Shown here: positions 1-60,804 of the stretch, piece after piece
How positions within the stretch are numbered: the first letter of the stretch is position 1
How the letters are laid out: every line of letters begins with the position of its first letter
From: an uncultured Chloroflexia bacterium
Lineage (GTDB): Bacteria; Chloroflexota; UBA5177
Direction of reading: 5' to 3'
Assembly: GCA_963737125.1 (NCBI GenBank)
Contig: CAVTRL010000001.1
Coordinates: forward strand, 1,758,355-1,822,354
Length of the DNA stretch: 64,000 nt
Made by a program: the position numbers and the translations under genes
The notes under the pieces: generated by a model
What the model was told of the DNA's origin: nothing
The model's database searches: none
The model's input: the letters and a program-made list of their open reading frames with translations, nothing else

Positions 1-1168
1 ACATCACCGCGCTGGTCGCAGCGACATCGGCCGGAAGGTATTCGTGTAGCGAGCGATCCGCGGTGCGCACGTAAAATTCCAGGACTTGCTCGGCCACTCG
101 CGGCCAGGAATACTCCACGACGGAGTGTCTGGCTTCCACTCCCATGGACAGCCGCAATGCAGGGCTCTGTAAGACCGTGCAAAGCGCATCGGCCAGCGCG
201 CGTTCGTCGCGTGGGGGAACAAGGAGGCCCTGCCGGCCATCGGACACGACCTGGCGATAGCCTTCGATGTCGCTCGCGACCACGGGTAGGCCGGCGGCCA
301 TGCCTTCGAGAAGCACGATCCCGAAGCTTTCGCCCTGGGTGGCGGGGCTGCACAGGACATCGGCGCTTCGATAGTACCTGGGCAGATCGTCGTCGGACAC
401 CCGGCCGACCACGATGATATCTCTCATATCGTGACGCTCGAGGTAGTCGACGTAGCGCGAGTTTTGCCAGTCGCCCGCGCCCACGACGATGAAGCGCGCA
501 TCGGGGAACGCAGCCTTGACGAGCGGGTAGGCCCGGAGGAGATAGCCGACGCCTTTGCGCTTTTCCGGCCTGCCGACGAAGAGGATATTGGGTCGACCAT
601 CGGAGAACTGGGGCAGCGGCTCGACCGACCCGGGATCGAAACGATTGATTTCGACCCCGTTCGGAATAATTCTGTAGGGGGCCATAAAGTACTGGCGAAC
701 AAAGCGTTTAGCAGCGCGTGATACCGCGATGCGGCCGTCGAGACTTCGGAACGCTCGCCGCAGTACGGGGCGGCCGTAGAAATATCCGTAGTACGAGCCG
801 CGGTAGGCATGAAACGTCCCGATATTCACCGAGCGAGAGTATCGCAATACGGTGGGAGGGAGCGACGGCATGAGGGGCTCGTGCACGTGCACGATGTCGA
901 ACCGTTCGGATGCGAGGACTTCCCGAACTCGCCGGGACAGGCGAAACGACAGCGTTATGCGAGCGATCGATCCATTTGCCGGCACGCGACGGACGTTTCC
1001 GATTCGATATACATCACTTTCCTCTCGCTCGAGATTGCGATTGGAAGACGGAGCCATGATGCGCACGTCGTGTCCCAACGCGGTAAATTCTCGATAGAGA
1101 TGCTTGACATGGTTGGTAACGCCGCCGGGGTAGGGATAATCGTACGGAGAGACCAGCGCAATCTTCAC
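1..1168 (-). CDS. GT4 glycosyltransferase, PimA-like (phosphatidylinositol mannosyltransferase-like); 3' end runs off the window
   Basis: My own minus-strand translation from a GTG at 1168 gives VKIALVSPYDYPYPGGVTNHV... and the GT4 motif ...ESFGIVLLEGMAAGLPVVASD...; not in the ORF track because the stop lies beyond position 1. The track ORF 4..360 is a different frame and is rejected. Confidence 0.7.
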   Translation of the reverse strand, partial: MKIALVSPYDYPYPGGVTNHVKHLYREFTALGHDVRIMAPSSNRNLEREESDVYRIGNVRRVPANGSIARITLSFRLSRRVREVLASERFDIVHVHEPLMPSLPPTVLRYSRSVNIGTFHAYRGSYYGYFYGRPVLRRAFRSLDGRIAVSRAAKRFVRQYFMAPYRIIPNGVEINRFDPGSVEPLPQFSDGRPNILFVGRPEKRKGVGYLLRAYPLVKAAFPDARFIVVGAGDWQNSRYVDYLERHDMRDIIVVGRVSDDDLPRYYRSADVLCSPATQGESFGIVLLEGMAAGLPVVASDIEGYRQVVSDGRQGLLVPPRDERALADALCTVLQSPALRLSMGVEARHSVVEYSWPRVAEQVLEFYVRTADRSLHEYLPADVAATSAVM

Positions 1169-1270
1169 GCGTTGCACCGCCGTACCGTCGCTGGCACGGC
1201 GAAGTTGCCTGGAAGAGGCACACTCCCGAGCGACCCGTCGAAAATTTCCGAACGTGCTGATTCAGACACT

Positions 1271-2194
1271 TTAAACAGCCGCCTCTTTATGATGCCTCAT
1301 GGTAGCAGCACCATTCGCGCCGGCGTTTGCGCTCCATACGGGTGAAAATGCCAGCCACTGTTCGGGATAGCGGGCAATGATGCGTTCCATCTGCCGGGCG
1401 AGGACATCGAGGTTCGCAGTGTCGTCGGCGTCCACATCGCCGGTGCGCTGTACGGGGAGAGGTACGATGAGGCCGTCGAAGGCACCCGGACTCTTTCGTA
1501 TGCCAACGGCCAGGACCAAGGGAGAGCCGAGCCGCCTGGCCAGCGCAACCGGGCCAACCGGTAAAGCCGCGACGTGGCCAAAGAGCTCGACGGGTTCCGT
1601 TCGGCCGGAAATATGGCGGTCTCCCGCGACGCCCACGATCTCGCCGGCCTTGAGAGCACGGATCATCTCGCGCGGCGCCCGTTCGAGCGGCACGATGTTG
1701 ATGCCGTGGGCGGCGCGTTCCTTGACGAGGAACTCAAAGAGCTGAGGCGGGCTCATCCGCTCGACCGGGACGGTGAGCCGGTAGCCGCGGGATGCAAGCA
1801 CCTGGCCGACCAGGTCGTGGTTTCCCAGATGCAGTGTGATCATGATCAGACCGTGCCCGGCCGACATCGCCGCGTCAACCGCTGACCAATCGGGCACATG
1901 TACCATGCGTTCGATCTCATCAATAGACAATGAGCCGATGCGCAGAGTATCGACCCAGTTCATGGCGTCGTGTTGGAACGTCCTGCGGGCGAGTCGGCGG
2001 ACGCGTTTCGAACCGGCCGGCTCGGACAGCACAATCGACAGATTCGAGGTGACGCCCGCCCGGGCGCGCGGCACGACGAAGTATGCGGCCCAGCCCGCAA
2101 CACGGGCCATCCGGTAGACGAGCGGAGCCGGTACCATGGCGAGGGTGCGACTCGCCAGGCGGAGGGCGACGTACAGGGCAACGTTCGGGGACAC
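1271..2194 (-). CDS. HtrB/LpxL-family lipid acyltransferase (paralog 2)
   Basis: 307-aa track ORF; overall resemblance to lysophospholipid/lipid A acyltransferases; start overlaps the stop of the upstream paralog. Confidence 0.65.
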   Translation of the reverse strand: MSPNVALYVALRLASRTLAMVPAPLVYRMARVAGWAAYFVVPRARAGVTSNLSIVLSEPAGSKRVRRLARRTFQHDAMNWVDTLRIGSLSIDEIERMVHVPDWSAVDAAMSAGHGLIMITLHLGNHDLVGQVLASRGYRLTVPVERMSPPQLFEFLVKERAAHGINIVPLERAPREMIRALKAGEIVGVAGDRHISGRTEPVELFGHVAALPVGPVALARRLGSPLVLAVGIRKSPGAFDGLIVPLPVQRTGDVDADDTANLDVLARQMERIIARYPEQWLAFSPVWSANAGANGAATMRHHKEAAV

Positions 2195-3111
2195 TATGCT
2201 TTCAGGTCCCCGCTCGTCTTCAAGGATGCGGCACCGGTGCGGGCATGGTCACGTTCCGGCCACATGGGACGAAACATGTACCACTGGTCGGGCCTTTCCC
2301 GAACAACCGTTTGCAGAGTGTCCATGAGCTTCTGCATGATGCCGGCGACGTCGGCGTCCCGATTGCCGGACTCGGCGCAGGGCACCGGCGGAAACAAGCG
2401 GCACTCGAAGGTTTGATCGGGTTGCCGGAACATGTATACCGGAAGGAGTGTTGCTCCGGTTTTCAAGGCGAGTACTGCCGGTCCGCCGGGGACGGCCGTC
2501 TCCCGTCCAAAAAAGCGAACGGTTACGCCCTCATCAGGAGGGAGTGGCCGGTCAAAGAGCAGGGTGAGTGAGCCGCCGGTGCGGAGCGCTTTCAGCATGC
2601 CGCGCGCGTCGTTCACGCCAATCAGGTGGATCCCTTTCTGGAGACGCTTGCGCTGAATGAGTCTGTCCAGATAGGCGGGTCGGAAGGTATCGTAGACGGC
2701 GTGTACAGCCGTGAAGTCTTGCAGACGCAGGCCGCCGACCTCAATAGTGCCGAAGTGGGCGCTCGCGATGATGACGCCTTTGCCGCGGGCGACGGCGGCC
2801 AACAAGTGCTCGAGCCCGTGGATTTTCATCGACGCGATGATTTCATCCGACGAGGACATGTTGGGTAGGTCGAGGAACTCGATGAGGTACTTGCAGTAAT
2901 TGCGCATGGACTTGCGCGCGATAGTGCGCACGTGGCCGTCGGAAGCATCACCACCGAGAACCGCCCGGGTATTGGCGAGGAGTATCCTGCGCTTGGCCGG
3001 CCAGGAGAGATACACGCAGTCGCCCACGGCGGTACCAATCAGGTACCGCCATGAACGGGGTATGAATCTCGAAAGAAACGCACTGATCTGAATGACCAGG
3101 TACAGCGCCAT
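2194..3111 (-). CDS. HtrB/LpxL-family lipid acyltransferase (paralog 1)
   Basis: 305-aa track ORF with HtrB-like acyltransferase features (..IIASAHFGTIE.., C-terminal ..RERPDQWYMFRPMW..). Confidence 0.65.
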   Translation of the reverse strand: MALYLVIQISAFLSRFIPRSWRYLIGTAVGDCVYLSWPAKRRILLANTRAVLGGDASDGHVRTIARKSMRNYCKYLIEFLDLPNMSSSDEIIASMKIHGLEHLLAAVARGKGVIIASAHFGTIEVGGLRLQDFTAVHAVYDTFRPAYLDRLIQRKRLQKGIHLIGVNDARGMLKALRTGGSLTLLFDRPLPPDEGVTVRFFGRETAVPGGPAVLALKTGATLLPVYMFRQPDQTFECRLFPPVPCAESGNRDADVAGIMQKLMDTLQTVVRERPDQWYMFRPMWPERDHARTGAASLKTSGDLKA

Positions 3112-3120
3112 GAACGTGTA

Positions 3121-4230
3121 CTAGGAGCTTGCCGTCACGGGGCTGTGCTCTTCAACCAGAGCCGTGGCGCGAATAAACGCTTCCGTCATCTCGCGAGCGA
3201 GCTCGTCCTTATGCTGGACAGGCGGTGATTTCATAAAGTACCCGGACGGCCCCTCGAGGGCGCCGGATATGTTGTGGTCAAGCGCCAGCTTGTTGCAGCG
3301 TATCGCGTCGATGACGACACCGGCGGAATTTGGAGAATCCCAGACTTCGAGCTTCATCTCGACGTTCAACGGAACGTCTCCGAAGGATCGGCCTTCCATC
3401 CGAATGTACGCCCACTTTCGGTCACTGAGCCATTCCACGTAGTCACTTGGTCCAATGTGCACATTGCCCTTGCCGACGTCGTAGTCGAGCTGCGAAGTGA
3501 CGGCGTTTGTTTTGGATATCTTCTTTGACTCGAGGCGGTCGCGCTCCAGCATGTTGAGGAAGTCGGTGTTGCCGCCGACGTTGAGCTGGCTGGTGCGTTC
3601 GACCTTGACTCCACGATCCTTGAAAAGGGTGGTCAAGGCGCGGTGAACGATGGTAGCGCCCACCTGAGATTTGATGTCGTCGCCAATGATCGGCAGTCCT
3701 GCCTGCTCGAAGCGACGGCGCCAGTATTCCTCGCGGGCGATGAAGACCGGGATGCAGTTTACGAATCCACATCCGGCCCGCAGCACCTGCTCGACATACC
3801 ACTTCGTCGCTTCCTCACTGCCGACGGGCAAGTAGCTGACGACTACATCGGTCTTGGTGTCCTTGAGGATTTGAACGACATCGGCGGTCGGACCGGGTGC
3901 TTTGGTGATGATCTCCGAAAGGTACTTGCCCAATCCGTCGTGGGTCATCCCGCGCTCAACCTTGACTCCGAGGCGCGGCACGTCAGAGAACTTGTAGGTG
4001 TTGTTGTGCCCTGAAAAAACCGCTTCCGAGAGGTCTTTGCCAACCTTTTCAGCGTCAATGTCGAAGGCGCAGCTGAACTCGATGTCCCGAATGTGATAGC
4101 CGCCCAAATTGACGTGCATGAGCCCTGGAACGAAATCGTCGTCCTTGGCGTCCTTGTAGTACTGCACGCCCTGCACAAGGGATGAGGCGCAATTTCCTAC
4201 CCCGATAATTCCAACTCGAACCTTCGACAC
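3121..4230 (-). CDS. ino1: myo-inositol-1-phosphate synthase
   Basis: 369 aa; N-terminal NAD-binding [21 protein letters not shown] and overall similarity to bacterial/archaeal MIPS. Confidence 0.85.
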
Positions 4231-4246
4231 GCTGCTTCTCCTTTGG

Positions 4247-4609
4247 CTACTGCTTGGTGGGTAAGGGGCTGGTGACGGTATTTGACGGGCTGTCGGCTTG
4301 ACTCGAGGCTTCCGAGTCTCGCTCTAGATTTGTCAACTGGAACATGGTTTCGATCTGCTGTTGGTAGGCCCGCAACTGCGGTCGATTCAGCGAACACAGG
4401 ACCTGCCGGCCGGTGCGAAGCGTGCTTACCACGCCGATTCGCCGCAGCACGCGGAGATGCCACGACATAAGCGGCTGACTTAGCCTGAACTCCACACTCA
4501 ACTGCGACACGGGCACGTGTTCGTGCAGCGCCAGATACTCAAGGATGGACAAGCGCTTACGATCGCTCAGGGCACGAAAGTACATTACGGGGTCGGCCAC
4601 GCCAGGCAC
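4247..4609 (-). CDS. ArsR/SmtB-family transcriptional regulator
   Basis: 120 aa with HTH core ..[42 protein letters not shown]..; true start may be the internal Met at about 4585. Confidence 0.65.
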
Positions 4610-4690
4610 CTACATATAAGTGTGTATTTCATAAACTTTCATTTGTATGTTAATGCGCGGTGAAGATGGATGTCAACCCGGTCGAGTGTG
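4610..4690. promoter_or_regulatory. AT-rich putative promoter/operator region upstream of the ArsR-led operon
   Basis: Locally AT-rich stretch (tacatataagtgtgtatttcataaactttcatttgtatgt) with weak dyad symmetry in an otherwise high-GC window, directly 5' of the arsR-like gene. Confidence 0.3.
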
Positions 4691-4693
4691 TGG

Positions 4694-6430
4694 CTAACTC
4701 GCCGCAGCGCCGGCCGATGCACCCGATTGGACGTCGGGTCGGAGTCCGAAGACGCGCCCACCAAGCTGGTACTGGCCGGAAAAATAGGCGTGGAGCTCGG
4801 TAGGGTCGATCACGTCCGCGAATGCTTCATGCAGTCCGGAGGGCGCGATCATAAAGGGGAACATCTGCGCCCCACCGAGGCCTCCGTGCGCGCCGCCGTG
4901 GTCCTCGAAGTTGACGACAGTCGCGCCGTCGTACGCGCCAAACACCATGAGGTCGCCCGCGCACGGCATGGCGGCGAGATTTACGAGCTGACGACGCACG
5001 ATTTCGGGATCGTCGTAGAGCCGCAGGAATTCGAGGTCTTCCGGGGCCGCCGACTGGAGCTCGATGCGGCGCTCGCGGTGGAGGAGCACGGTGCCATCCT
5101 CGTTCTGCACCAGGACGATGCCGATTCCGGGATGCCGCACGAGGGCATCGAGCAAACCGGGAGCAATCGCTTCGACGGCATCCAGCCCGGGACGGGTTTT
5201 CTCGTGCGTGAAGTAGACGTTGGCCAGAGCGCTGGAGTAGATAGCCAGTACCGGACTGTGGCTCTGCTCGGCCAGTCCGGCCTGGAGCGGGCCGGTACCG
5301 ATGCGCATTGCCAGCCGCATCGCTCGATCCACGAAAAAGCTCGTGGCGGAACTGGTTTTTGGCCCGATCTCGGCAGACAACTCTTCCAACTGCTGCAGAG
5401 TTGCCAGGTCTCGATAACCGCGGCCATCGAGCTCATCGGCACGCGGCGGCTGAACGCCGTGCGAGGCGATGAACTGACCGAGGGTCTGGCCGTAGAGGTG
5501 CCGAAATGGCAGGGACTGCGTCATGCCGTGGTCGCTCATGATGTAGAGGTCGTAGGGGCGCAACCCGAGCGCGCTGATCGCTCGGTGAATATCCCGGATC
5601 TGACGATCGAGGGCGCGAAGCGATCGATAGGCCGCGGTGCTGCGCGGACCCAGATGATGGGCGACTTCGTCGTATCCGATGTAATTCGCGTAGATGGCAG
5701 GCACGCCTCGAAATATGTCCAGGCGAACGCCGAGGGTGGTGAGCTCGCGAAACAGTACGTGGGTGAAGGCCCGGGTCAAAGGGAAGATGCCCTCAGGCGC
5801 GACATAGCGGCGCCGCAAGCGGTACAGCGCCTGTTCGTAAATCTCTATGAACACTTCCGCGACGGTGAGAAAGGCAGCTCGGGCCAGGCGCCAGGGATTG
5901 AGTACGAGTAGCAAGAACACGTCGATCCCAGTGAGCTTGGGTGGGAACGAGGTGCGCCCAAGGGCGCTCGTGGTAAAAACTGCACGCTGCGCGCCGCCGG
6001 AGGCCATGCCCATATACACGCTGCCGTGGCGAAAGAGACCCGCGCTGCCGTTCGCGTTCTCGGTTTCCACCGCGGCCATATCGAGGGGCCAGCTGCAGAT
6101 GACGGGCCTCTGTTTCCGCCGGTCAAACCAATAAAAACCGGGCACATTGGTCTTTTTGCCGTAAAATACGGCGCACTGAATTGCCGCGGTATCACTTGGA
6201 GCGCCACTCCTCCACTGCGATACGGCGTGTGTCGAGCCGATCAAGCGCTTCAGAAAGGGTAGATGCCCGTCAGCCATGGCACGGCCCAAATCCTCATGCG
6301 AGAGGGCGTCGATCTGCAGAATGATGAATCCCCGGCGCCGGCCCTCGATCTGGCTGTAGGGTAATTGAAGGCGTCGCAGGGTCGCCGTTGCTTTCAAAGC
6401 AGCCAGAGTTCCACGAAGGGAAACGCGCAA
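4694..6430 (-). CDS. alkaline-phosphatase-superfamily protein (type I phosphodiesterase / nucleotide pyrophosphatase-like)
   Basis: 578-aa ORF; N-terminal ..FIILQIDALSHEDLGRA.. metal-site-like region; family-level assignment only. Confidence 0.5.
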   Translation of the reverse strand: MRVSLRGTLAALKATATLRRLQLPYSQIEGRRRGFIILQIDALSHEDLGRAMADGHLPFLKRLIGSTHAVSQWRSGAPSDTAAIQCAVFYGKKTNVPGFYWFDRRKQRPVICSWPLDMAAVETENANGSAGLFRHGSVYMGMASGGAQRAVFTTSALGRTSFPPKLTGIDVFLLLVLNPWRLARAAFLTVAEVFIEIYEQALYRLRRRYVAPEGIFPLTRAFTHVLFRELTTLGVRLDIFRGVPAIYANYIGYDEVAHHLGPRSTAAYRSLRALDRQIRDIHRAISALGLRPYDLYIMSDHGMTQSLPFRHLYGQTLGQFIASHGVQPPRADELDGRGYRDLATLQQLEELSAEIGPKTSSATSFFVDRAMRLAMRIGTGPLQAGLAEQSHSPVLAIYSSALANVYFTHEKTRPGLDAVEAIAPGLLDALVRHPGIGIVLVQNEDGTVLLHRERRIELQSAAPEDLEFLRLYDDPEIVRRQLVNLAAMPCAGDLMVFGAYDGATVVNFEDHGGAHGGLGGAQMFPFMIAPSGLHEAFADVIDPTELHAYFSGQYQLGGRVFGLRPDVQSGASAGAAAS

Positions 6431-6530: not shown

Positions 6531-7052
6531 ATGACCGATGACGAAGGGTTCTCCGGGCTCTCGCACGTGGGCGCCGACGGCAAGGCGCACATGGTCGACG
6601 TGGCGGCGAAACCGAGCAGCACACGAATCGCCGAGGCCGAGGGATATGTTTGCATGCTGCCGGCGACGCTCGACCGCGTGCGAAGCAACAGCGCCGAGAA
6701 GGGTGATGTACTGGGAGTGGCGCGTATTGCCGGAATCCTGGCCGCGAAGAAGACCTCGGAGCTCATCCCGCTCTGTCACGGACTGGCGCTGGACCATGTG
6801 GGGGTGGAATTCGAGCTCGACGAGCCGGGGTCACGGGTGCGGGTGAGCGCGAGGGCGATCACCCGAGGGCCGACGGGTGTGGAAATGGAAGCTCTGACCG
6901 CCGTGGCGGTGGCCTCCCTGACGGTGTACGACATGTTGAAGGCGGTCGATCGCGGCATGACGATTGACGGTGTACGACTGACTCTCAAGTCGGGCGGACG
7001 GTCAGGGACGTACCACGCAGGTGAAGCGGCTACGCCAGATCGTACTCTCTGA
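6531..7052 (+). CDS. moaC: cyclic pyranopterin monophosphate synthase accessory protein MoaC
   Basis: 173 aa; ..[22 protein letters not shown].. and ..[16 protein letters not shown].. are MoaC hallmarks. Confidence 0.85.
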
Positions 7053-8409
7053 TCTTGGCCTGCAACATCGTGCGCTGGATGCCGAGCTGTTTCGCGGCCT
7101 GGCCACGGTTGCCATCCGCCTGGTCCAGAGCGGCTTCGATCGCTTGACGCTCGACCTCGGCCACTATCTCTTTGAGTTTGACGCCGGCGGCAACCTTGTC
7201 TTGCACGCCGTCCGATGAAAGGTTGCCGTTTTTACCCGGGGCACCGGTGAACACGACGTGCTGGGGCGTGATGACCGACTCCCTGGCGAGGATTATGGCC
7301 CGATGGGTGGAGTTCTCCAGTTCCCGTACGTTGCCCGGCCAGTTGTAGGTCATGAGTTTGTCGAGTGCTTCCTCGGAAATGCGAGGGTTGTTGTTCGGGG
7401 CGTCATTCCGGTATTTCTGCAGGAAATGCTCGACCAGCAGCGGTACGTCGTCCATTCGATCGCGGAGCGGCGGGAGCTCGAGCGCGATCACGTTGAGACG
7501 GTAGTACAAATCCTCGCGAAAGCGACCTTCCGACACTTCCTTGGCAAGATTCCGGTTGGTGGCGGCGACGACACGGGTGTTTACCTTGATCGGCGTATTG
7601 CTTCCGACGCGCTCGAATTCGCGTTCCTGTAGAACGCGAAGTAACTTCTTCTGGGTGTTGAGCGACATTTCGCCAATTTCGTCGAGAAAAATCGTGCCAC
7701 CGTCGGCCATCTCGAAGCGACCCTTCCGGGTCTTCACGGCGCTGGTGAAACTGCCGGCCTCGTGACCGAAAAGCTCGCTCTCAAGTAGAGTCTCGGTCAG
7801 TGACGCGCACGGCACTTTGACGTAGGGTCCATTGCGCCGGTTGGAATTGAAGTGTAGAGCCCCCGCCACGAGCTCCTTTCCGGTGCCACTCTCGCCCGTT
7901 ATCAAGATGGTGGCCTCGGTGCGGGCCACCTGCCCGATGGTTTTGTAGACCTGCTGCATGGGCATTGTGTTGCCGATGATGTTGTCCAGGGGGTCGCGAA
8001 TGGTTTCATCGACGGCGCGGACCCGCCGAGCGAGATTGCGGTGGTCGAGGGTTCGGCGGACGGTGATAAGCAAGTCATCCAATTCGAATGGTTTGGTGAC
8101 GTAGTCGTAGGCGCCGCGCTGAATGGCCTCGATGGCGACGTTCGATGTGCCGTAGGCGGTCATCGTGAGGACCGGTACATCGTCGATATGCATTTTTTTC
8201 ATCTGGTCCAGCACATCAAGACCGCTCATACCCGGCATCCGGACGTCCATAATAAGGACATCGGGCCGGTGCTTGGTGAGGGCCGGAATGACGTCACGAC
8301 CGGACTTGGCCTCAATGGTATTGAAACCTTCGCTTTCCAGGAAGCTTTGAAGCAGGCCCCGGATCGATTGATCGTCGTCCGCGACAAGAATTAACGCCTT
8401 TTCGTCCAT
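7030..8409 (-). CDS. sigma-54-dependent Fis-family response regulator (NtrC-like)
   Basis: Receiver domain ([20 protein letters not shown]..), AAA+ sigma-54 activator core (..[19 protein letters not shown].., ..GAFTGA-like region), C-terminal Fis HTH. Track ORF extends to 8553; start at MDEK (8409) preferred. Confidence 0.8.
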
Positions 8410-8578
8410 TGACCCCTCGCACCCCCGCACACACCGCGCTGTTGCCGACGTCCGCCGCCAACCAACCGATTGTACAGTGCAAAGGGGCCGTTCGGGACGT
8501 CCGGCGGAGCCGGCGGGCAAGCGATCGACGGCCCGCACGTGTACTGGAGGCAACGATCAGGTCGAAGGCGCGTAAAGA

Positions 8579-10453
8579 ATGAAAGTGATCGGAACGGCGG
8601 GCCACATAGACCACGGCAAGTCCACGCTCGTTCGACGGCTCACGGGGATCGATCCGGATCGGCTGGACGAGGAGAAGCGGCGCGGCATGACGATCGACCT
8701 TGGCTTCGCTTGGCTCACGCTGCCGTCCGGGGTGGAGGCGAGCATCGTGGACGTCCCGGGACACGAGCGATTCGTGAAAACCATGGTGGCGGGCGCGGGT
8801 GGAGTGGATGTCGCACTGCTGGTGGTGGCGGCCGACGAGGGGATCATGCCGCAAACCAGGGAGCATCTGGACATTCTCGATGTACTGGGCGTCCGATATG
8901 GGGTAGTGGCGCTGACGAAGTGCGATCTGGTGGACGAGGAGTGGCGCGAGCTGGTGGCCGAAGAGGTACGCGAGGAACTTGTGGGCTCCTCACTGGAGGG
9001 CAGCTCCGTGGTTCCGGTGAGCGCCCAGTCGGGGGAAGGTCTGGACCGCTTGCTGCAGGCACTTGATTCCGCGCTCGCGGCGAGCCCGGCGCCGCGCGAT
9101 CGTGGACGACCGTACCTGCCTATTGACCGCGCGTTTTCAGTCGCGGGCTTCGGCACGGTGGCAACCGGTACGTTGCACGACGGCACGGTAACCGAAGGCA
9201 TGGAACTGACGCTGCTGCCGGCGGGCCGGCGGGTGAAAGTGAGGGGCCTGCAAACGCATCGCAAGCAGGTGGATGAGGCGACCGCGGGCGCGCGCGTGGC
9301 CGTCAATCTTTACGGGCTCAACGCGTCGGACCTGCAGCGAGGAGATGTGCTGGCGGCACCCGGCGCAGTCGCGGTCACGCAGCGAGCGGACGTATGGCTG
9401 AGGGTCGCTCGGTCGGCGCCGCACGCTTTGCGTCACGGAATGACCGTGATGGCCCACGTCGGCGCGGCGGAAGGCGCGACAACGCTCGCCCTCTTCGAGC
9501 GAGCCGAACTGCCGCCCGGGGAATCGGGCTGGGGACAACTCCGGTTTGAGACTCCACAGGCAATAACCCGTGATGAGCCATTCGTACTCCGACTACCGGC
9601 CCCGGCGCGCACGGTGGGCGGGGGCATTATCACCGACACGGCGCCACGTCACCGCAGATCCGACAGGTCGGCACTGAAGCGGTTGAGTGACCTCATGTCG
9701 CCGAACCAGCACGACCGCGTGCGAGCGGCGGTGACTGCCGCGTCACCACTTTCCATCGAGTCGATCGAGTTGAGGGCCGGCCTGACCCGGGCCGAGACGT
9801 CCTCGGCACTGCAGGAGCTGACGACGGATGGAAGTGTGGTCAGGGTGGGCCAGCGATACCTCTCGAAGGAAGGGTGGGACCGGCTGGAGCGTGAGGTGGA
9901 AGAGGCTCTGAGCGGGTACCACGCGCGGCATCCACTGGCGCTAGGCATGGCGCGTGAGGAGCTCAGAACGAGGGTTGGCTGGAGATTCGCCGGCTGGGCG
10001 GACGTGTTGGAGTGCCTGGCGGACCGGGGGATTGTGCGGGTGAGCGGCGCGCGTGTCGCGGCCAGTGGCCACGGCGGCGGTACCGGTAGCCGCCGCGCCG
10101 AGGCGGACGCCGTCAAGGAGCTGCTGACTGCAACGCCGTACGCGCCGCCCGGTGCGACGGTCTTGATGGCGGAAACGGGGGCGGACGCGGCGTTGTTGCA
10201 GGCGATGGTCGAGGAAGGCGAAATCGTGCGAGTGGACACGGGGCTGTATTTCGAGCGTGCGGCGCTCGACACTGTGAAAAGAACAGCCGTCGAGGCGATA
10301 CGTGCCGAGGGCTCGCTGACGGTGTCTACGCTGCGCGACAGACTGGGCACGTCGCGCAAGTACGCGCTCTCGCTCCTGGAGTTTCTCGATAGCGAACGAG
10401 TGACACGCCGGATCGGAGACGAGCGCGTGCTCGGTGTGCAGGCGGCGGAATGA
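8579..10453 (+). CDS. selB: selenocysteine-specific translation elongation factor SelB
   Basis: 624 aa; N-terminal GTPase [18 protein letters not shown] plus long C-terminal winged-helix-type extension typical of SelB rather than EF-Tu. Confidence 0.8.
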
Positions 10454-11583
10454 AAGTAGGCATAGCAGCCTATTTGCTGCACTCCGGCGCCGATTATCGC
10501 GCAGCCGGGGTAAGCCTCTATACGTATCAGCTGCTCCGATACTTGCCAGGAGCCGCGAACGACAGCGAATTTCTAGCTTTTTGCGGAAAGGACGCCCCGC
10601 CGGTGGAAAAGGTCCATTCGGTAGTCACGGCCGTGCCGACGGTCCATCCGGTCCTCAGAATCGCGTGGGAGCAAACCGGTTTTCCCTGGTCGGCCGGTCG
10701 GCACGACGTGGATCTGGTGCACGGCACGGTGAACGTGGTGCCGCTCCTTGCGCGGATTCCATCGGTCGTCACCGTGCATGACCTGTCGTTCTTGCGGCTG
10801 CCGGGCATGTTTCCCGCCGCGAAGTCGAGGTATCTGAAATTGGCCGTCGCGCAATCTGTGCGGCGGGCGACGCACGTTATCGCAGTTTCAGCCGGCACGA
10901 GGGCGGATGTGGTAGAGCTGCTCGGCATACCAGAAGGCAAAGTGACGGTGGTCCATTCTGGCGTGTCACCGGCATTTCGACCGCTGGCAGCGGCCACAAT
11001 CGAGCGATTTCGAGTCTCGCACTTTGGCGGCCGCCCGTACATCTTGCACGTGGGAACACTTCAGCCGCGTAAGAACATCGACGTCCTGATCCGGGCATAT
11101 GCAGGCCTCCGGCGCGAGCTGCAACTTCCGCACATGCTGGTCCTGGTCGGTGCGCGAGGATGGATGTTTGAAGATCTGTTCGATCTGGTCCGATCTGAGG
11201 GCCTGTCCGAGCACGTTTTCTTTGCCGGATACGTACGCTGGGAGGATTTACCACTCTGGTATAATTCCTCCGACCTGTTCGCCTACCCGTCGGCCTACGA
11301 AGGCTTCGGATTTCCCTTACTCGAGGCGATGGCGTGTGGAGTGCCGGTCGTCGCCTCTTCCGTTCCGACTTCGGTCGAGGTGGTTGGTGATGCAGGTCTA
11401 ACCGTTTCGCCCGGATCCCAGGAGGCTCTCCAAATGGCACTGACGCGCGTCCTGGAAGATTCGACGCTGCGCGCCGAATTGGTTGAGCGAGGTTTGGCGA
11501 GAGCCGCAACGTTTACCTGGGAACGTACGGCCGCCGAGACGGTCGCCGTGTATGAACGCGTCCGCAGGGAAACCGCACGTTGA
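10450..11583 (+). CDS. GT4-family glycosyltransferase
   Basis: 377 aa; C-terminal ..YPSAYEGFGFPLLEAMACGVPVVASS.. GT4 motif. Confidence 0.7.
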   Translation: MKVGIAAYLLHSGADYRAAGVSLYTYQLLRYLPGAANDSEFLAFCGKDAPPVEKVHSVVTAVPTVHPVLRIAWEQTGFPWSAGRHDVDLVHGTVNVVPLLARIPSVVTVHDLSFLRLPGMFPAAKSRYLKLAVAQSVRRATHVIAVSAGTRADVVELLGIPEGKVTVVHSGVSPAFRPLAAATIERFRVSHFGGRPYILHVGTLQPRKNIDVLIRAYAGLRRELQLPHMLVLVGARGWMFEDLFDLVRSEGLSEHVFFAGYVRWEDLPLWYNSSDLFAYPSAYEGFGFPLLEAMACGVPVVASSVPTSVEVVGDAGLTVSPGSQEALQMALTRVLEDSTLRAELVERGLARAATFTWERTAAETVAVYERVRRETAR

Positions 11584-13043
11584 TTGAATGGAGCCCGCGC
11601 GTCAGCGCCGGACGAGAGGCACGTTCCACCTCGTTTCAGCGACTCGTGCCGGTGACCACGGCGGCCCTCGATCTGGTCCTGATCTACGGCGCTTTCATTC
11701 TGGCTTACTGGCTTCGGTACACGCTGCGGTTGGGGCCGACAATACAACAGCACATCAGTTTCTGGCGGTATCAGCCGCCTGCGCTTTTGCTCGCGGCCGT
11801 AATGATGGTGGTGCTAATCGCGAAAGACTCGTACCGGCGGCGCATGGGCGGGGACATAGTGGGAGAGGCGATCAACGTTTTCAGCGCCTCTACCATTTCG
11901 GTGGCGACGATTGTGGTGATCAACGCGATGCTGCATCAGTGGGAATATTCACGTGCGGTCATCCTGTACGTATGGGTACTGGCGATCGCTCTGGTGATCA
12001 CGGGGCGCGCTCTGCACCGAAGTATGCAGACGATGCTTTACCGAAAAGGACGCGGTGTGCGACGACTGCTGGTGGTCGGGGCTACCGACGTTGGAAAGAT
12101 GATCATGCAAAGCGTGATGAACCGGCCGGACTTCGGTTATCAGCTCGTGGGGTTCGTAGAGCATCGATCATCGCCGACCGTAAAAAACTTCGGCCGCTTT
12201 CGGGCGCTCGGCACGGTGGTAGACGTGCCGTCGATCGTGGAAAGCGCCGGGATCGATGAGGTGATAATCGCGCTTCCGGCTTCGGCACACGAGGATATGT
12301 GGCCCATTCTCAGTAGCTGCGAACGCCTCGGGGTCGGAGTGAAGCTCGTGCCCGACCTGTTCGAAATGGGCCTTGGTAGGGTTCAGATGGACGACATCTC
12401 GGGTATCCCATTGATCGACGTGCAGGAGCGCCCGCTGAGAAATGTCGCGCGAGTAGCGAAGAGATTCACGGATGTGGCGTTGGGATCGATCCTCTTGATC
12501 GCGACGACGCCGGTGGTGTTACTGCTGGCGCTATTGATCCGTCTGGAGTCGGCCGGGCCGGGCTTTCTTCGACAAGAGCGGATCGGCGTGGGTGGCCGCC
12601 GCTTTCTGTGCCTGAAGCTACGGACCATGCGGGTGGATGCAAACGATGTGACGGCGTCGCTACAAGCGATGAATGAAAGCGATGGGCCGCTCTTTAAGAT
12701 TCGGAATGATCCGCGGTGCACGGTGCTGGGAAAGAGAATCCGGCGACTGAGCCTTGACGAGCTGCCGCAGTTGTGGAACGTGGTGAAGGGCGAGATGAGC
12801 CTGGTAGGCCCGCGTCCAGCACTTCCGCACGAAGTTGAGCAGTACGATCTACGTCAAATGCGACGTCTGGAAGTGAAGCCAGGCATCACCGGGATATGGC
12901 AGGTGAGCGGACGGAGCGATCTGTCTTTTGACGAGATGGTGATGATGGATATCCACTACGTGGAAAATTGGTCGATTGGCCTGGACATTGCGATTTTGCT
13001 GCGAACCGTGGTCGCGGTCGTTGCCAGACACGGGGCGTATTGA
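11580..13043 (+). CDS. polyprenyl-phosphate sugar phosphotransferase (WbaP/exopolysaccharide 'sugar transferase' family)
   Basis: 487 aa; C-terminal ..LSLDELPQLWNVVKGEMSLVGPRPALPHEV..KPGITGIWQVSGRSD.. bacterial sugar transferase domain preceded by TM segments. Confidence 0.75.
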   Translation: MIEWSPRVSAGREARSTSFQRLVPVTTAALDLVLIYGAFILAYWLRYTLRLGPTIQQHISFWRYQPPALLLAAVMMVVLIAKDSYRRRMGGDIVGEAINVFSASTISVATIVVINAMLHQWEYSRAVILYVWVLAIALVITGRALHRSMQTMLYRKGRGVRRLLVVGATDVGKMIMQSVMNRPDFGYQLVGFVEHRSSPTVKNFGRFRALGTVVDVPSIVESAGIDEVIIALPASAHEDMWPILSSCERLGVGVKLVPDLFEMGLGRVQMDDISGIPLIDVQERPLRNVARVAKRFTDVALGSILLIATTPVVLLLALLIRLESAGPGFLRQERIGVGGRRFLCLKLRTMRVDANDVTASLQAMNESDGPLFKIRNDPRCTVLGKRIRRLSLDELPQLWNVVKGEMSLVGPRPALPHEVEQYDLRQMRRLEVKPGITGIWQVSGRSDLSFDEMVMMDIHYVENWSIGLDIAILLRTVVAVVARHGAY

Positions 13044-30484: not shown

Positions 30485-31634
30485 CTGAATTTCGACCTTT
30501 CCGACGAACAAATCATGGTGCGAGATCTGGCCCGCGACTTCGCCACGAACGAGATGGCACCGAAGGCGGAGCATTACGACCGGGAGCACTCCGTTTCCGT
30601 ACGACGTGATCCAGGGATTGGCGGAACTCGGTTTCCTGGGGCTCCCTGTACCGGAAGAGTACGGTGGGGCGGGTGCCGACACGCTGACCTACGCGCTGGC
30701 CGTTGAGGAGCTCTCACGCGGTGACGCTTCAGTGGGCATCACGGTAGCAGCTCATACGTCGCTTGGCACCATGCCGTTTCTGCTATTCGGCTCTGAGGAG
30801 CAGAAACACGAATTCGTGCCTCCGCTAGCGCGCGGTGAGTCGCTCTGGTCATTCGGCCTGACGGAGCCCAACGCGGGGTCAGATGCCGGTGCGACGCGCA
30901 CGCAAGCGACGCTGACCGATGGTTCCTGGCGTGTGAACGGGGTGAAATCGTTCATCACGAATTCCGGCACGACCATGAGCGGGGGAGTAACTATCACCGC
31001 CGTTACCGGAACGTTGCCAGACGGTAAGGCGGAGATATCCAATTTGATCGTGCCGAGGGGCACACCCGGGTACTCGATTGCCAAAGACTACGACAAGATG
31101 GGCTGGCGGGCCTCCGACACTCACGAACTGGCGTTCAACGACGCGCAAGTGCCGGAGAACCGGCTGCTCGGCCCACGCGGTGAGGGGTTTCACCAGTTTC
31201 TAACGATTCTCGACGGCGGCCGGATTTCGGTGGCGGCGCTGAGCGTAGGGCTGGCGCAGGCGTGTTATGATGCCTCGTTCAAATACGCGCGCGAGCGGAG
31301 CCAGTTCGGGCGGGCAATCTCGAAATTCCAGGCGATCCAGTTTCGGCTGGCCGATATGGCGACGGAGATCGAGATGGCCCGCTTGATGACGTATAAGGCT
31401 GCCTGGCTGAAGGATGCCGGAAAGGACTTCCGGATGGCTGCCGGCATGGCAAAGCTCTACGCGACGGAAGTGGCGACACGCGCCGCGAACCACGCAGTGC
31501 AGATCCATGGTGGCTACGGAATCATGGAGGAGTTTCCGGTGGCTCGATACTGGCGGGACGTCAAGATCGGTGAAATCGGGGAAGGCACCTCCGAGATCCA
31601 GCGGACGGTTATCGCCCGACTGCTGGGCGCGTAA
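30485..31634 (+). CDS. acyl-CoA dehydrogenase (frameshift near 30600; start approximate)
   Basis: N-terminus ..[36 protein letters not shown].. in one frame, continuing as track ORF 30606..31634 (..[32 protein letters not shown]..). Confidence 0.75.
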
Positions 31635-31714
31635 TACAGTGGGAGTAGACGTCGCGCGTCGACTCGAACGTGCGCCCGCACCGCAGGCACCAGACCTTTC
31701 TAGAAAATAGCGTC

Positions 31715-32901
31715 ATGGAAGAAGTAGTTATTGTCTCGACGGCCCGCACGCCGTTCGGAAAGATGGGCGGCGCTCTCAGCCCATTGAGCGCGATCGATCT
31801 GGGCTCGTGCGTCGATTCGATCCGCGCTGGAACGGGCGCAGGTGCCGTTCGACGAGGTCGACGCAGGTAATCATGGGAACGGTCATCACGGCCGGTCTGG
31901 GTCAGATCCCGGCGCGGCAGGCGGCACTGAAAGCCGGGCTGCCCAAAGAGGTTTCGGCCCTGACGGTCAACAAGGTATGCGCGTCCAGTCTGAAGGCGGT
32001 CAATCTGGCCGCCCAGATGATCCGGGCCGGGGACGCCGACGTGGTGGTGGCGGGAGGCATGGAGAGCATGAGCAATGCTCCGTACCTCTTGCCCGGCGCA
32101 CGTTTCGGATACCGGATGGGCGACGGCGAGCTGGTCGACGCGATGATGCGCGACGGTCTCAACTGTCCTACCGGGTGCGTCCCCATGCACGAGTACGGAA
32201 GCGACGTGGCCGCGGAATTCGAGATCAGCCGGGAGGACCAGGATCGATGGTCGCTGCGCAGCCAGCAGCGGTACGCCGCAGCGCTGGACGCCGGGAAGTT
32301 TTCGGACGAAATCGTGCCAATCTCGGTACCGCAGCGAAAGGGACCGGCACTGCTGGTGGATCGGGACGAACAGCCCCGCCCGGACACGACCTTCGAAGGA
32401 TTGCAGAAGCTCAAGCCGCTCAAGCCGGGGGGCAGTGTGACGGCGGGAAACGCTCCCGGCGTCAACGACGGCGCGGCCGCGCTGGTGGTTATGTCGGGCC
32501 GGAAAGCGGCGGCGCTCGGCGTCACGCCGCTGGCCATTCACCTGGCGCAGGGCGAGGCAAACGACGAGAACCGCTATCTGCATACCGTGCCGGCGGATGC
32601 CATCCTTCGCGCTTTGAAACGGGCGAAGATCGACCTGGATCAGATCGGCCTATTCGAAATAAATGAGGCGTTCGCGGCGGTGACGCTGCGTAGCATGCAA
32701 ATGCTCTCGCTGGACGGCGAGAACGTCAACGTGAACGGCGGAGCAGTGGCGATCGGACATCCGATCGGCGCGTCGGGCGCGCGCATTCTGGGGGCATTGA
32801 TCCTCGAGATGGGCCGCCGCGGCGTGGAGTACGGCGCGGCAGGCATCTGCAGCGGCATGGCGCAGGGTGAGGCGACCGTGGTACGCCTCCCCTTCAGGTA
32901 A
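31715..32901 (+). CDS. acetyl-CoA C-acetyltransferase (thiolase); two frameshifts near 31800-31860
   Basis: MEEVVIVSTARTPFGK.. start; conserved ..VNKVCASSLKAV.. and C-terminal ..NVNGGAVAIGHPIGASGARIL..; N-terminal 45 aa in a different frame from the rest. Confidence 0.8.
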
Positions 32902-32940
32902 AGCGTCCGGGTGGTGTCTTGAGCGGAGCCGAAGCGTATC

Positions 32941-34087
32941 GTGGATATTGAGCTGACCCAGGACGAGACCGACATTCTCGACGTAGTACGGTCGTTCGCA
33001 CGCGAAGAAGTGCTGCCACGCGCAGCGGCGATCGACCGGGACGGTGAGTATCCGGTCGATCTGGTGCGTGCCATGGGGGAACTGGGACTGATGGGCGTGC
33101 CGTTTCCGGAAGAGTACGGCGGCGCAGACCAAAGGTATTTAATGTTTGCGCTGATCGTCGAAGAGCTATGCCGGGCGTGCGCCAGTACCGGCCTGATCAT
33201 GGACGTCAATATCTCGCTGTGCGGCGAGCCCATCTGGCTATTCGGCACCGAAGACCAGAAGCAGAAGTATCTGGGACGGCTGGCGCGCGGAGAGGCGCTG
33301 GGCGCACTGGCGATGACCGAACCGGAGGCAGGCTCGGACGCAGCGTCGATTCGGACGACAGCGGTGAAGGATGGCGATTGCTACGTCCTGAACGGCCGAA
33401 AGATCTTCATCACGAACGGTGAGGTCGCGGACATGTACATCGTGACGGCGGTGACCGACCCCGAGAAGGGAACGCACGGGATCACAGACTTCATCGTCGA
33501 AAAGGCATGGCCGGGTGTCTCATTCACGACTCACTACGAGAAGATGGGCATCCGCGGCGCACCGACCACGGACGTGGTGCTGGAGAACGTCGAGGTGCCG
33601 GTCGAGAACGTGCTGGGCGGCGAGGGAAACGGATTCAAAGTCACGATGGACACGCTCGACGCGGGGCGGATCGGCATCGCGGCGCAGGCGGTCGGTATTG
33701 CGCGCGCGGCGCTGGAGGACGCGACGGAGTACGTCAAGACCCGGCGGCAGTTTGGAAAGTCGATCTGCCGAATTCCAGGGCATGCAGTTCATGCTGGCCG
33801 ACATGGCGACAGCAATTCACGGCGCCAGGCTTTTAACCTTACGGGCGGCCGGTCTGCGCGACGCGAATATCCCGTGCGCGCGGGAATCTTCGATGGCGAA
33901 ACTGTTTGCAGGCGACACGGCGATGAACGTGACGACTGAGGCGGTCCAACTTTTCGGCGGGTACGGCTACATGCAGGAGTATCCAGTGGAGCGCCATATG
34001 CGAGACGCGAAAATCACGCAGATTTACGAGGGTACGCAACAGATCCAGCGAGTGGTGATTGCCCGCCAGGTGTTGAACGCCCGATGA
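32941..34087 (+). CDS. acyl-CoA dehydrogenase (frameshift near 33770)
   Basis: Track ORFs 32941..33939 and 33515..34087 together give a full ACAD (..[32 protein letters not shown]..). Confidence 0.75.
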
Positions 34088-35229
34088 ACTTCACTCTGAC
34101 CGACGATCAGGAAGCTATCCGCGACGCGGTACGCGACTTCGCACAGGGTGAAGTGGCGCCTCGCGCGGCGCAAATCGACCGCGACAATGTCTTTCCGCGC
34201 GATCTGGTGGAGGCGGCGGCGGGGCTCGATCTGCTGGGCATCGTCGTGCCGGAGCAGTACGGCGGGACCGGGCTGGACCATGTCTGCTTCGCGCTCTTCG
34301 TGGAGGAGATCGCGGCCGTCTCGGGCACGCTGGCCGTGATTCTCGACGTGCACACGTCGGTGGGTACCGAACCAATCATTGCTTTCGGAAGTGACGAACA
34401 AAAGCAGCGGTATCTTCCCCGACTGGCGCGCGGGGAGTATCTCGCGGCATTCGCGCTTTCCGAGCCTGAGTCTGGATCGGACGCCGCCAGCCTGACGTCC
34501 AGCGCCACTCTGGTCGACGGCTGTTATCGCTTGAACGGAACGAAGACGTTTATCACCAATGTCGGCGAGGCCGGACTCTACATCGTGATGGCACGCACCG
34601 GCGAGCCGGGAGCTCGCGGCATCTCGGCGTTCATCGTGGAGGCGGACACGCCCGGACTGTCGTTCGGGGCGCCGATGCACAAAATGGGCCTGCGAGGGTC
34701 GTCCACCGGCGAATTAGTGCTGCACAACGTCGAGGTGCCGGTGTCGAACCTGCTGGGCGACGAGGGACAGGGTTTCCGGGTGGCGATGAAGGCTCTGGAC
34801 AGCGGGCGGATCGGGATCAGCGCCCAGGCGGTCGGCCTGGCGCGAGGGGCGCTGGACCTGGCATCGTCGTACGCCACAGGAACGCCAACAGTTCGGCCAG
34901 CCGATTGCGCGCTTTGAGGGCATCCAGTTCATGCTGGCAGACATGGCAACCGCCATCGACGCGTCGCGGCTGATGACGTGGGAGGCAGCGGCACGCTGCG
35001 ACGCGGGGAAGCCCGTTTACGTCGTCGGCGTGCCATGGCAAAGCTGATGTCGACTGATACGGCGATGAAGGTTACGACCGACGCGGTGCAAATCCTGGGC
35101 GGATACGGCTATATCAAAGAGTTTCCGGCCGAGCGGTTCATGCGCGATGCGAAGGCGACCCAGATCTACGAGGGTACCAATCAGATCCAGCGTATCGTCA
35201 TCGCGCGCGACCTGCTGCGCGGTGGATGA
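34084..35229 (+). CDS. acyl-CoA dehydrogenase (frameshifts near 34880 and 35030)
   Basis: Track ORFs 34084..34917 and 34978..35229 plus an intervening third-frame segment (..[16 protein letters not shown]..). Confidence 0.75.
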
Positions 35230-47200: not shown

Positions 47201-47890
47201 TTACTCCCCTCCCGCCAACCGTCTTTCCTCGGCGGCGGACCGGCGCACATAGAGTGGCTCCAGAGTGTGACGCTGGTCTTCGCCGCCAGCTGCAAGGCAC
47301 CGTCTACACAATTCTGCCAAATACGTCGCTCGACGCAGCCGGAAATAGTCCGGTTCGACGACCCACTCTCCGGCGGTCGCGCCACCGGCGGCCGCTATCG
47401 AGGCCGCGCCCGGGCCACACAGCACGGTTCCTGGCATAATGCCGTTGGCCGCCTGAACCGGGGTCGTCAGCTCGATGTGGCCCATCATGACGACGTTGCC
47501 CTCGCTTGACGTATAACGCGCAGCGTAAATCTGTCCCCTCCCGGCCGGTAATGACGCAATCAGTGTGCCACCCAGACACGACGCCGAGAACGCGATGACA
47601 TCGAGAGTACCGACGCCTATGAGCGGAACGTCGAGGGACAGCGCGAGGCCCTTGGCAAAACTAAGACCCACCCGGAGCCCGCTGAACGATCCCGGCCCCG
47701 TGGCAACGGCCACGGCATGTATCTCGGTTGGAGTGAGGTTTTCGGTCTCGATGAGTACGTCCAGCAAACGCGAAAGATGAGCGGAGTGATTGGAGCTCGC
47801 TGTCCAGGAAAACTCGGCTCGAGGGGCGCGTTCCTGCAGAAGTCCGAGCGATGCCTGATCGGTTGACGTGTCGATGGCCAGGATCAACAT
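47201..47890 (-). CDS. tsaB: tRNA threonylcarbamoyladenosine biosynthesis protein TsaB
   Basis: Start set at MLILAIDTSTDQASLGLL within track ORF 47201..48022; YeaZ-type inactive Kae1 paralog. Confidence 0.75.
   Translation of the reverse strand: MLILAIDTSTDQASLGLLQERAPRAEFSWTASSNHSAHLSRLLDVLIETENLTPTEIHAVAVATGPGSFSGLRVGLSFAKGLALSLDVPLIGVGTLDVIAFSASCLGGTLIASLPAGRGQIYAARYTSSEGNVVMMGHIELTTPVQAANGIMPGTVLCGPGAASIAAAGGATAGEWVVEPDYFRLRRATYLAELCRRCLAAGGEDQRHTLEPLYVRRSAAEERRLAGGE

Positions 47891-59091: not shown

Positions 59092-60804
<1,713 letters not shown>

Follow-up and report, generated by a model that had tools for sequence, protein, structure and literature searches.

The locus at positions 1–4609 of this stretch of DNA from an uncultured Chloroflexia bacterium (64,000 nt, referred to here as the window) raises the question of whether an organism outside the Actinobacteria carries the genes for glycolipids of the phosphatidylinositol mannoside (PIM) type. 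Reviews place bacterial inositol lipids mainly in Actinobacteria and Spirochaetes, to which Bacteroidetes were added in 2022 (PMC9246714), and in the sources consulted PIM biosynthesis is described only for mycobacteria and corynebacteria (PMC3229680). An earlier note on this DNA had read the locus as an ArsR-led operon containing ino1, two genes for HtrB-like acyltransferases and one for a PimA-like GT4 glycosyltransferase, and had proposed a PIM-like glycolipid pathway in a non-actinobacterial, high-GC lineage. All five genes were found, intact, at 1–4609, and their sequences support such a pathway in such a lineage, with the glycolipid itself as the predicted product. The operon probably encodes an early PIM-type pathway, as in the synthesis of the mycobacterial PIM glycolipids.

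The open reading frame (ORF) list, together with Pfam and NCBIfam matches, places five intact genes in the same direction on the minus strand:

4247–4609, minus strand: ArsR/SmtB-family winged-helix regulator, 117–120 aa, first gene of the operon (NF033788, PF01022)
3121–4230, minus strand: ino1, myo-inositol-3-phosphate (1L-myo-inositol-1-phosphate) synthase, 369 aa (PF01658)
2194–3111, minus strand: AT1, LpxL/HtrB-family acyltransferase, a second paralogue related to PatA, 305 aa (PF03279, Lip_A_acyltrans)
1271–2194, minus strand: AT2, PatA-like acyltransferase, 307 aa (PF03279, Lip_A_acyltrans)
1–1177, minus strand: PimA-like GT4 glycosyltransferase, 389–392 aa, with GTG starts at 1168 or 1177

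These genes are closely packed, with 16 nt between arsR and ino1, 9 nt between ino1 and AT1, an overlap of the AT2 start with the AT1 stop (GTGA), and 93 nt between AT2 and the GT4 gene; the GTG start of ino1 is preceded by an AAAGGAG ribosome-binding site. The stop codon of the GT4 gene straddles position 1, leaving the first base of its TAG alone inside the window. The evidence supports a six-gene operon, arsR-ino1-AT1-AT2-pimA-pips, of which the window holds the first five, pips denoting a phosphatidylinositol phosphate (PIP) synthase gene. The juxtaposition of these genes is not due to chance, since the arrangement recurs in related genomes. These were taken from a scan with the GT4 protein across one genome per GTDB species, which gave 252 relatives, and the loci analysed were the best 80 of these (44–82% GT4 identity).

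The GT4 protein has the two-domain GT-B/GT4 architecture (Pfam Glyco_transf_4 and Glycos_transf_1). Among solved structures, it matches PimA of Mycobacterium smegmatis (2gej) along the whole length of the enzyme (residues 4–372; E 2.2e-60, 207.9 bits) with ~36% identity, and the next-best solved GT4s were Tll1590 (87.9 bits), PimB' (79.6 bits) and MshA (67.3 bits). When the window protein and 78 Chloroflexota relatives (n = 79) were aligned to PimA, residues Tyr9, Gly15-16, His118, Arg196, Arg201, Lys202, Glu274, Ser275 and Glu282 (PimA numbering) were invariant in 79/79, the nucleotide-sugar site (Arg196, Lys202 and the EX7E pair Glu274 and Glu282) being intact in every sequence, and Arg68 was kept in 78 of the 79. 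Some of these residues set PimA apart from PimB', as Tyr9 never varies in PimA and corresponds to Asp in PimB', a Ser follows the catalytic Glu in PimA where PimB' has Gly, and the beta3-alpha3 'IP-binding' loop is 10 residues longer in PimA than in PimB' (PMC2988379). The segment aligned to this inositol-phosphate loop (PimA 55–80) is as long as in PimA, at 26 residues, in 69 of the 80 sequences of the alignment (PimA counted), and is 27–28 residues long in the rest. Guerin et al. reportedly assigned, in 2007, a role in membrane association to a basic amphipathic helix of PimA bearing Arg77, Lys78, Lys80 and Lys81. At these positions the window protein has R, R, R and E (RLSRRVRE), and position 80 alone is consistently basic among the homologues. 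Judged from the PimA-specific residues and the scores, the GT4 is PimA-like and not a generic GT4, in agreement with the earlier note, and the grouping with non-PimA glycosyltransferases that the note had allowed for did not occur. Homologues with 82% identity are annotated by JGI as phosphatidylinositol alpha-mannosyltransferase.

The enzymes that would supply the GT4 with its lipid acceptor are Ino1 and a PIP synthase. Ino1 scores 128.7 bits with PF01658 and matches M. tuberculosis Ino1 (1gr0) over the full length (residues 2–353, E 6e-145), whilst its best NCBIfam model, TIGR03450 (mycothiol_INO1), gives 546.5 bits, under the equivalog cut-off of 638. The signature motif of CDP-alcohol phosphatidyltransferases was missing from all six frames of the 64-kb window, as the earlier note had stated in suggesting that a phosphatidylinositol (PI) synthase may lie beyond position 1 and that the sequence upstream of the window should be inspected. 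A near-identical Logan contig (L001, 3.6 kb) shares 3568 nt with the window, with 2 mismatches, and extends 57 nt past position 1. In this tail, an ORF opens 2 nt after the TAG stop of the GT4 gene and encodes MFPAAMQGWAKRVAETV; these first 17 codons agree with the N-terminus of the CDP-alcohol transferase encoded after the GT4 gene in the relatives L002 (MFPPEMQAWARRVAEGMV) and L004 (MFPASVQNWARGAAEAVV). A scan of JGI metagenomes for exact DNA matches gave none. A complete CDP-alcohol phosphatidyltransferase gene follows the GT4 gene in the ten closest relatives (L002–L011), its D(x)2DG(x)2AR...G(x)3D(x)3D motif lying 198–261 nt past the GT4 stop, and the gap between the two genes is within ~10 nt in L002 and L004, where the ORFs were read. 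For the 215-aa synthases of these relatives, the best structures are mycobacterial PIP synthases (6wm5, E 4.6e-30; 6h53, E 5.9e-29). The archaetidylinositol-phosphate (AIP) synthase model gives them 162–177 bits (cut-off 180), the PIP synthase model 137–153 bits (cut-off 170), the BT_1523 model 144–149 bits and PgsA 33 bits. Together, these matches support the prediction that a PIP-synthase-like CDP-alcohol transferase gene begins 2 nt past the GT4 stop, just outside the window, which is where the earlier note had expected it.

Ino1 and a GT4 also begin mycothiol synthesis, in which MshA is a GT4 acting on an inositol-phosphate-containing acceptor and depends on Ino1, and the best model for Ino1 here is the one named for mycothiol. 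The CDP-alcohol transferases of the relatives, for their part, show weak similarity to DIPP synthase (67–71 bits). The locus could on these grounds serve a soluble inositol product, either a mycothiol-like thiol made by an MshA-type GT4 on inositol phosphate, or a compatible solute of the di-myo-inositol-phosphate type. This is very improbable. With the MshA model TIGR03449 (cut-off 462.5 bits), the GT4 scores 90.5 bits, in its C-terminal half only, and the structures of MshA reach 67 bits compared with 208 for PimA, whose specific residues are present. The 215-aa CDP-alcohol transferase has no cytidylyltransferase domain and matches PIP/AIP synthases at 137–177 bits, neither soluble pathway has a use for two membrane-lipid acyltransferases, and none of the window proteins that were scanned resembles MshB, MshC or MshD. 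The mycothiol and di-inositol-phosphate readings were both rejected on scores and domain content.

Both acyltransferases belong to PF03279 (AT1 159.8 bits, AT2 109.3 bits), the family that also holds the LpxL/LpxM late acyltransferases of lipid A, and PRK07920 (NF005919, PIM acyltransferase) is the top NCBIfam model for each of them (AT1 149.7 bits, AT2 127.6 bits). The best solved structure is likewise PatA of M. smegmatis (5f2t; see also 5oce) for both, at 78 bits (E 5.8e-21) for AT1 and 63 bits (E 2.7e-16) for AT2, with LpxM of A. baumannii (5kn7) behind it at 57 bits (E 1.6e-14) and 33 bits (E 2.7e-7), respectively, and the genes stand in an inositol-lipid context, not among lpx genes. Chloroflexota are generally regarded as being without lipopolysaccharide, and lipid A is therefore an unlikely substrate of LpxL-family enzymes here. 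In PatA, His126 is the general base and Glu200 the relay, and the mannose ring is held by Tyr83, Trp84, Trp130 and Phe160, plus Arg164 (PMC8519569). The catalytic His and a carboxylate partner are kept in both window proteins, as an HX4E motif in AT1 (HFGTIE; HFGTxE is shared with LpxM) and as HX4D in AT2 (HLGNHD). Arg164 is also retained in both, and both have Asp at the position of PatA Glu200.

The two paralogues appear to differ in their relationships. Neighbour joining was applied to 103 acyltransferases from Chloroflexota together with AT1 and AT2 of the window and incomplete sequences of PatA and LpxM, and it split the first-position (AT1-type) genes from the second-position (AT2-type) genes. 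PatA of M. smegmatis was sister to the AT2-type sequences only, in 84/100 bootstraps of what is a rough tree (distance method, partial reference sequences), and the AT1 clade stood apart from PatA, with an AT1-type paralogue present across the classes sampled. AT2 also adjoins pimA, as Rv2611c does in mycobacteria (PMC3229680), and because of this position it appears likelier than AT1 to be the PatA counterpart.

Put together, the genes predict the following continuous route, in which homology supplies the assignments of sugar donor, regiochemistry and the acceptors of both acyltransferases. Ino1 would convert glucose-6-phosphate to inositol-3-phosphate, a direct substrate of PIP synthase, and the PIP-synthase-like CDP-alcohol transferase would join this to CDP-diacylglycerol, giving PIP. 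A phosphatase encoded outside the operon would then produce PI. At the membrane surface, the PimA-like GT4 would transfer mannose from GDP-mannose to the inositol 2-OH of PI, forming PIM1, and the PatA-like AT2, perhaps with AT1 as well, would add acyl chains from acyl-CoA to yield acylated PI mannosides. PI has been reported as a major polar lipid of one cultured Chloroflexota species, beside unidentified glycolipids (PMC12453558).

Concerning the phosphatase step, in 53 of the 80 loci the gene next upstream of the pimA-like one encodes a metal-dependent phosphoesterase of the PHP family (PHP and PHP_C domains, ~250–280 aa). This phosphoesterase gene lies mostly between pimA and the second acyltransferase gene, among loci L013–L080 (e.g., L041:9216-10001, L024:9194-9931 and L014:9231-9962), and it was not found in L002–L011, nor in the window by tblastn. 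Its nearest structures are of the nucleotide-bisphosphate phosphatase and exoribonuclease types (9etk, 2yb1, 7ug9), and it is a candidate for the PIP phosphatase. Just upstream of the operon promoter in the window itself, a 578-aa phosphodiesterase-family protein is encoded at 4694–6430 (minus strand), with a weak match to Pfam Phosphodiest (E 1e-11) and no match in NCBIfam or the PDB. It is conserved upstream of arsR in L002–L005, L007, L008 and L011 and is missing there in L010. This protein was treated as a neighbour and not as a member of the operon; a role in inositol-lipid metabolism, for instance as a phosphatase, is possible but unsupported. A divergent gene pair further away, at 50833–52149 (minus strand) and 52107–53336 (plus strand), encodes a PMT_2-type GT-C glycosyltransferase (polyprenol-phosphate-sugar dependent) and a PAP2_3 membrane phosphatase/transferase, either of which could act in later PI-glycolipid steps or as the PIP phosphatase.

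Several features weigh against the proposed PIM-type pathway. The operon contains no recognizable PIP phosphatase and no second mannosyltransferase of the PimB' type. For the source organism, the synthase gene was read over its first 17 codons only, and the PIP-synthase-like proteins of the relatives fall slightly below both curated cut-offs. Identity of the GT4 to PimA is just ~36%, and PimA residues Gln18, Arg70 and Lys256 are replaced in it. AT1 and AT2 both score under the 209-bit PRK07920 equivalog cut-off, and each keeps one of the four aromatics of the mannose pocket of PatA (Tyr83/Trp84/Trp130/Phe160 being Y/L/I/I in AT1 and N/W/H/L in AT2). The changed acceptor-site residues of AT1 and AT2, their scores under the cut-off and the replaced PimA residues, together with the LpxM-like HX4E motif and separate branching of AT1, would also fit a PI lipid decorated differently from mycobacterial PIMs. 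In such a lipid, the GT4 would use another nucleotide sugar or inositol hydroxyl, and one or both acyltransferases would act on PI or lyso-PI (chain remodelling) or on the inositol ring instead of the mannose 6-OH. A decoration of this kind is unlikely, since the features that separate PimA from PimB' are kept (Tyr9 and Ser275, counted as invariant in the 79 homologues, and the long inositol-phosphate loop), PimA is far ahead of the other solved GT4s, and AT2 groups with PatA and adjoins pimA as in mycobacteria. A mannose-bearing, acylated PI lipid accordingly stays the preferred prediction for this operon.

Whether the operon belongs to a non-actinobacterial organism was judged from the relatives and from the surrounding genes, among which is the regulator that the earlier note had used as a taxonomic clue:

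7030–8553, minus strand: NtrC-type sigma-54 activator (Sigma54_activat 239 bits, with a receiver domain and HTH_8)

This activator is real, and the argument drawn from it serves only as an indirect clue. The best 80 of the 252 relatives all come from metagenome-assembled genomes (MAGs) labelled Chloroflexota, Chloroflexia, Dehalococcoidia or Anaerolineae, save one labelled Proteobacteria. The cluster occurs in MAGs with each of the three class labels, including contigs of Mb scale and one complete chromosome. The gene order SelB-NtrC-MoaC-phosphodiesterase-ArsR-Ino1-AT1-AT2-GT4-PIPS is common to the closest relatives, including L002–L004 and L008, and the NtrC protein is 79–89% identical in these closest relatives. 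From the labels of the relatives, the synteny shared with NtrC and the even GC content, it follows that the host is a Chloroflexota bacterium and not a member of the Actinobacteria, and that the NtrC regulator is native. The other case raised by the earlier note, an actinobacterial genome with an acquired regulator, was thus not encountered. The NtrC gene is not part of the inositol-lipid system and is of use as a taxonomic hint alone.

A foreign origin of the cluster, whether by recent transfer from Actinobacteria or through an actinobacterial or chimeric window, would mean that there is no non-actinobacterial PIM pathway here. It might be suspected from the strong likeness of Ino1 to that of M. 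tuberculosis (E 6e-145) and from the nature of the relatives, all of which are MAGs with labels given by their submitters, one syntenic locus (L011) being labelled Proteobacteria. This origin is nevertheless extremely improbable. GC content is uniform, at 0.60–0.66 across the window and 0.60–0.62 over the operon, and the flanking synteny common to the ten closest loci extends over 10 kb, NtrC, MoaC and SelB included. The cluster is spread over MAGs labelled Dehalococcoidia, Anaerolineae and Chloroflexia, each acyltransferase paralogue forms a clade that spans these three labels, and the GT4 is just ~36% identical to PimA. The L011 locus itself (JAJPIP010000076.1, 'Proteobacteria bacterium') shows the Chloroflexota arrangement of the phosphodiesterase-family gene and the operon from arsR to pips, with a GT4 72% identical to that of the window, and it probably represents a mislabelled or contaminated bin.

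Conservation of the native Chloroflexota cluster was counted in the loci with enough flanking sequence for each comparison. Upstream of the GT4 gene, two acyltransferase genes were present in 41 of 64 loci, one in 8, three in 1 and none in 14, and ino1 was found on the same strand in 37 of 56. A CDP-alcohol motif occurred downstream of the GT4 gene in 51/76 loci, nearly always in the adjacent gene. Homologues of the ArsR-type protein are encoded upstream of ino1 in L002–L005 and L008–L011. In three loci of the Anaerolineae or Aquidulcis type, a gene for a FAD-dependent oxidoreductase separates the pimA-like gene from that of the CDP-alcohol transferase (L020:2953-4107, L023:11104-12393, L024:11008-12375).

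The closest known counterpart is the early PIM operon of the Corynebacterineae, represented in M. tuberculosis by Rv2612c (pgsA1), Rv2611c (patA) and Rv2610c (pimA) (PMC3229680). Both operons combine a CDP-alcohol transferase of the PIP synthase type, an LpxL-family PIM acyltransferase or its likeness and a GT4 of the PimA type, both have a patA-like gene directly upstream of pimA, and the catalytic and PimA-specific acceptor residues are kept. They differ in their hosts and in layout. The synthase gene is downstream of pimA in Chloroflexota and upstream of patA in the Corynebacterineae, the Chloroflexota operon takes in an ArsR-type regulator and also ino1, which in M. tuberculosis lies apart from the PIM genes, and it has two acyltransferase paralogues instead of one. 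Neither thrS nor Rv2613c is in the Chloroflexota cluster. The M. tuberculosis PIM locus also has a Nudix gene, which we take to be Rv2609c, without a counterpart in the ORFs after the operon in L002 and L004. At the protein level, the GT4 is 36% identical to PimA, and the acyltransferases match PatA weakly (63–78 bits), with Glu200 changed to Asp, three of the four mannose-contacting aromatics changed in each paralogue, and scores below the NCBIfam equivalog cut-off.

A second point of comparison is the inositol-lipid cluster of Bacteroides thetaiotaomicron, with a myo-inositol-phosphate synthase (MIPS, BT_1526), a PIP synthase (BT_1523) and a PIP phosphatase of the PgpA family (BT_1525) (PMC9246714). 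In that genome as here, MIPS and PIP synthase are clustered outside the Actinobacteria and PI would be reached through a PIP intermediate. The Bacteroides cluster, however, serves inositol sphingolipids, has the PgpA-type phosphatase, and lacks PimA and PatA. The window operon has no phosphatase gene, and most other Chloroflexota have the PHP-family phosphoesterase at that place.

A search of the literature on the phylum and its classes found no paper describing PIMs, pimA or such an operon in Chloroflexota. Thermomicrobia reportedly contain diol-phosphoinositol and phospho-acylmannoside lipids, a point given no weight here. Annotation pipelines already name homologues pimA, and what appears to be new is the link between Chloroflexota and the PIM pathway. 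By the sequence evidence, a PIM-type operon is common in Chloroflexota, which would make this the second large phylum to carry one. A conserved ino1-patA-pimA-pips operon in at least 252 Chloroflexota species genomes would make PI-glycolipids a normal part of the envelope in a phylum that is among the most abundant uncultured ones of soil, sediment and groundwater. A broader reading takes acylated PI mannosides as an envelope lipid that is ancestral to Chloroflexota and found throughout the phylum, made from a self-contained operon, with the AT1-type protein as an inositol or second-site acyltransferase (giving Ac2PIM-type lipids) and the PHP-family phosphoesterase as a new kind of PIP phosphatase. 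This reading is doubtful. If true, the extra genes of the operon would account for steps that have no assigned enzyme in the actinobacterial pathway, where the acyltransferase making Ac2PIM2 'remains to be identified' (PMC8519569) and a PIP phosphatase is known only in Bacteroides, from the PgpA family (PMC9246714). The Chloroflexota operons offer compact comparative candidates for both the second PIM acyltransferase and the PIP phosphatase of mycobacteria. The finding also bears on the assignment of intact polar lipids to their sources in environmental lipidomics, may, for chemotaxonomy, identify the 'unidentified glycolipids' reported for cultured Chloroflexota, and bears on the origin of the PIM pathway among monoderm phyla.

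With regard to expression, the 84-nt AT-rich gap between the stop of the upstream phosphodiesterase gene and arsR holds the promoter of the operon, along with a possible regulatory site:

4647–4676, minus strand: sigma-70-type promoter, TTGACA-18 nt-TAACAT, 10/12 matches to consensus
4611–4647, minus strand: candidate operator, the imperfect dyad TACAAATGA-N19-TTATATGTA, located after the -10 element and ahead of the start of arsR

The -35 and -10 hexamers are at the same place in L003–L005, L008, L010 and L011, that is, in most of the eight relatives aligned. In the dyad, 7/9 pairs match in the window and 8/9 in L002, and the same block (ATAAGCG...CGCTTAT) is seen in L008 and L011. The arsR start shared with relatives is the GTG at 4600, which is probably the true start. 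The ArsR-type protein scores 68.3 bits with NF033788 (cut-off 55) and also matches PF01022. Metal sites in the ArsR/SmtB family are an alpha-3 CXC motif or an alpha-5 cluster of Asp, His and Glu. Inspection of the translation showed one Cys only, without a CXC motif, and the alpha-5 helix at the C-terminus has no His/Asp cluster; the protein is probably a non-metal regulator. It probably regulates its own operon, with the dyad block at 4611–4647 as a candidate operator to which it may bind.

Control of the operon by sigma-54 was also considered and ruled out, as no -24/-12 element (TGGCAC-N5-TTGCW, with up to 2 mismatches) was found in 1–4700 and a sigma-70-type promoter is present instead. 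Window-wide, the counts of sigma-54-like matches were not above chance. The best of them, TGGCACACTGATTGCG, lies at 47555–47570 on the minus strand, upstream of a GNAT/TsaD gene pair. The consensus of the sigma-54 contact loop is GAFTGA, and the NtrC-type activator at 7030–8553 has GSFTSA there.

Among other genes of the window, a second GT4 (10450–11583, plus strand, 377 aa) overlaps the selB stop, and a gene for a Bac_transf polyprenyl-phosphate sugar transferase comes after it (region 10450–13043). As a PimB' or second PIM mannosyltransferase it was rejected, being a generic GT4 (PimA 53 bits, PimB' 44 bits). Selenocysteine genes flank the locus, with SelB at 8579–10453 (plus strand) in the window and SelD, in relatives, two genes past the PIP synthase and after a DgcN-like gene (L002:13075-14052, L004:13026-13988). 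The window has three tRNAs (Glu, Leu and Pro), with no tRNA-Sec among them. Some ORFs are short compared with their Pfam models, namely pieces of acyl-CoA dehydrogenase (30606–31634, 32941–33939 and 34084–34917), a thiolase that begins only at position 46 of the profile, a urocanase fragment of 173 aa and a NuoC/NuoD piece (regions 30606–34917, 60177–60698 and 62639–63727). Their lengths suggest frameshifts, arising either from assembly errors in a long-read MAG or in pseudogenes, unlike the five operon genes, which are full length.

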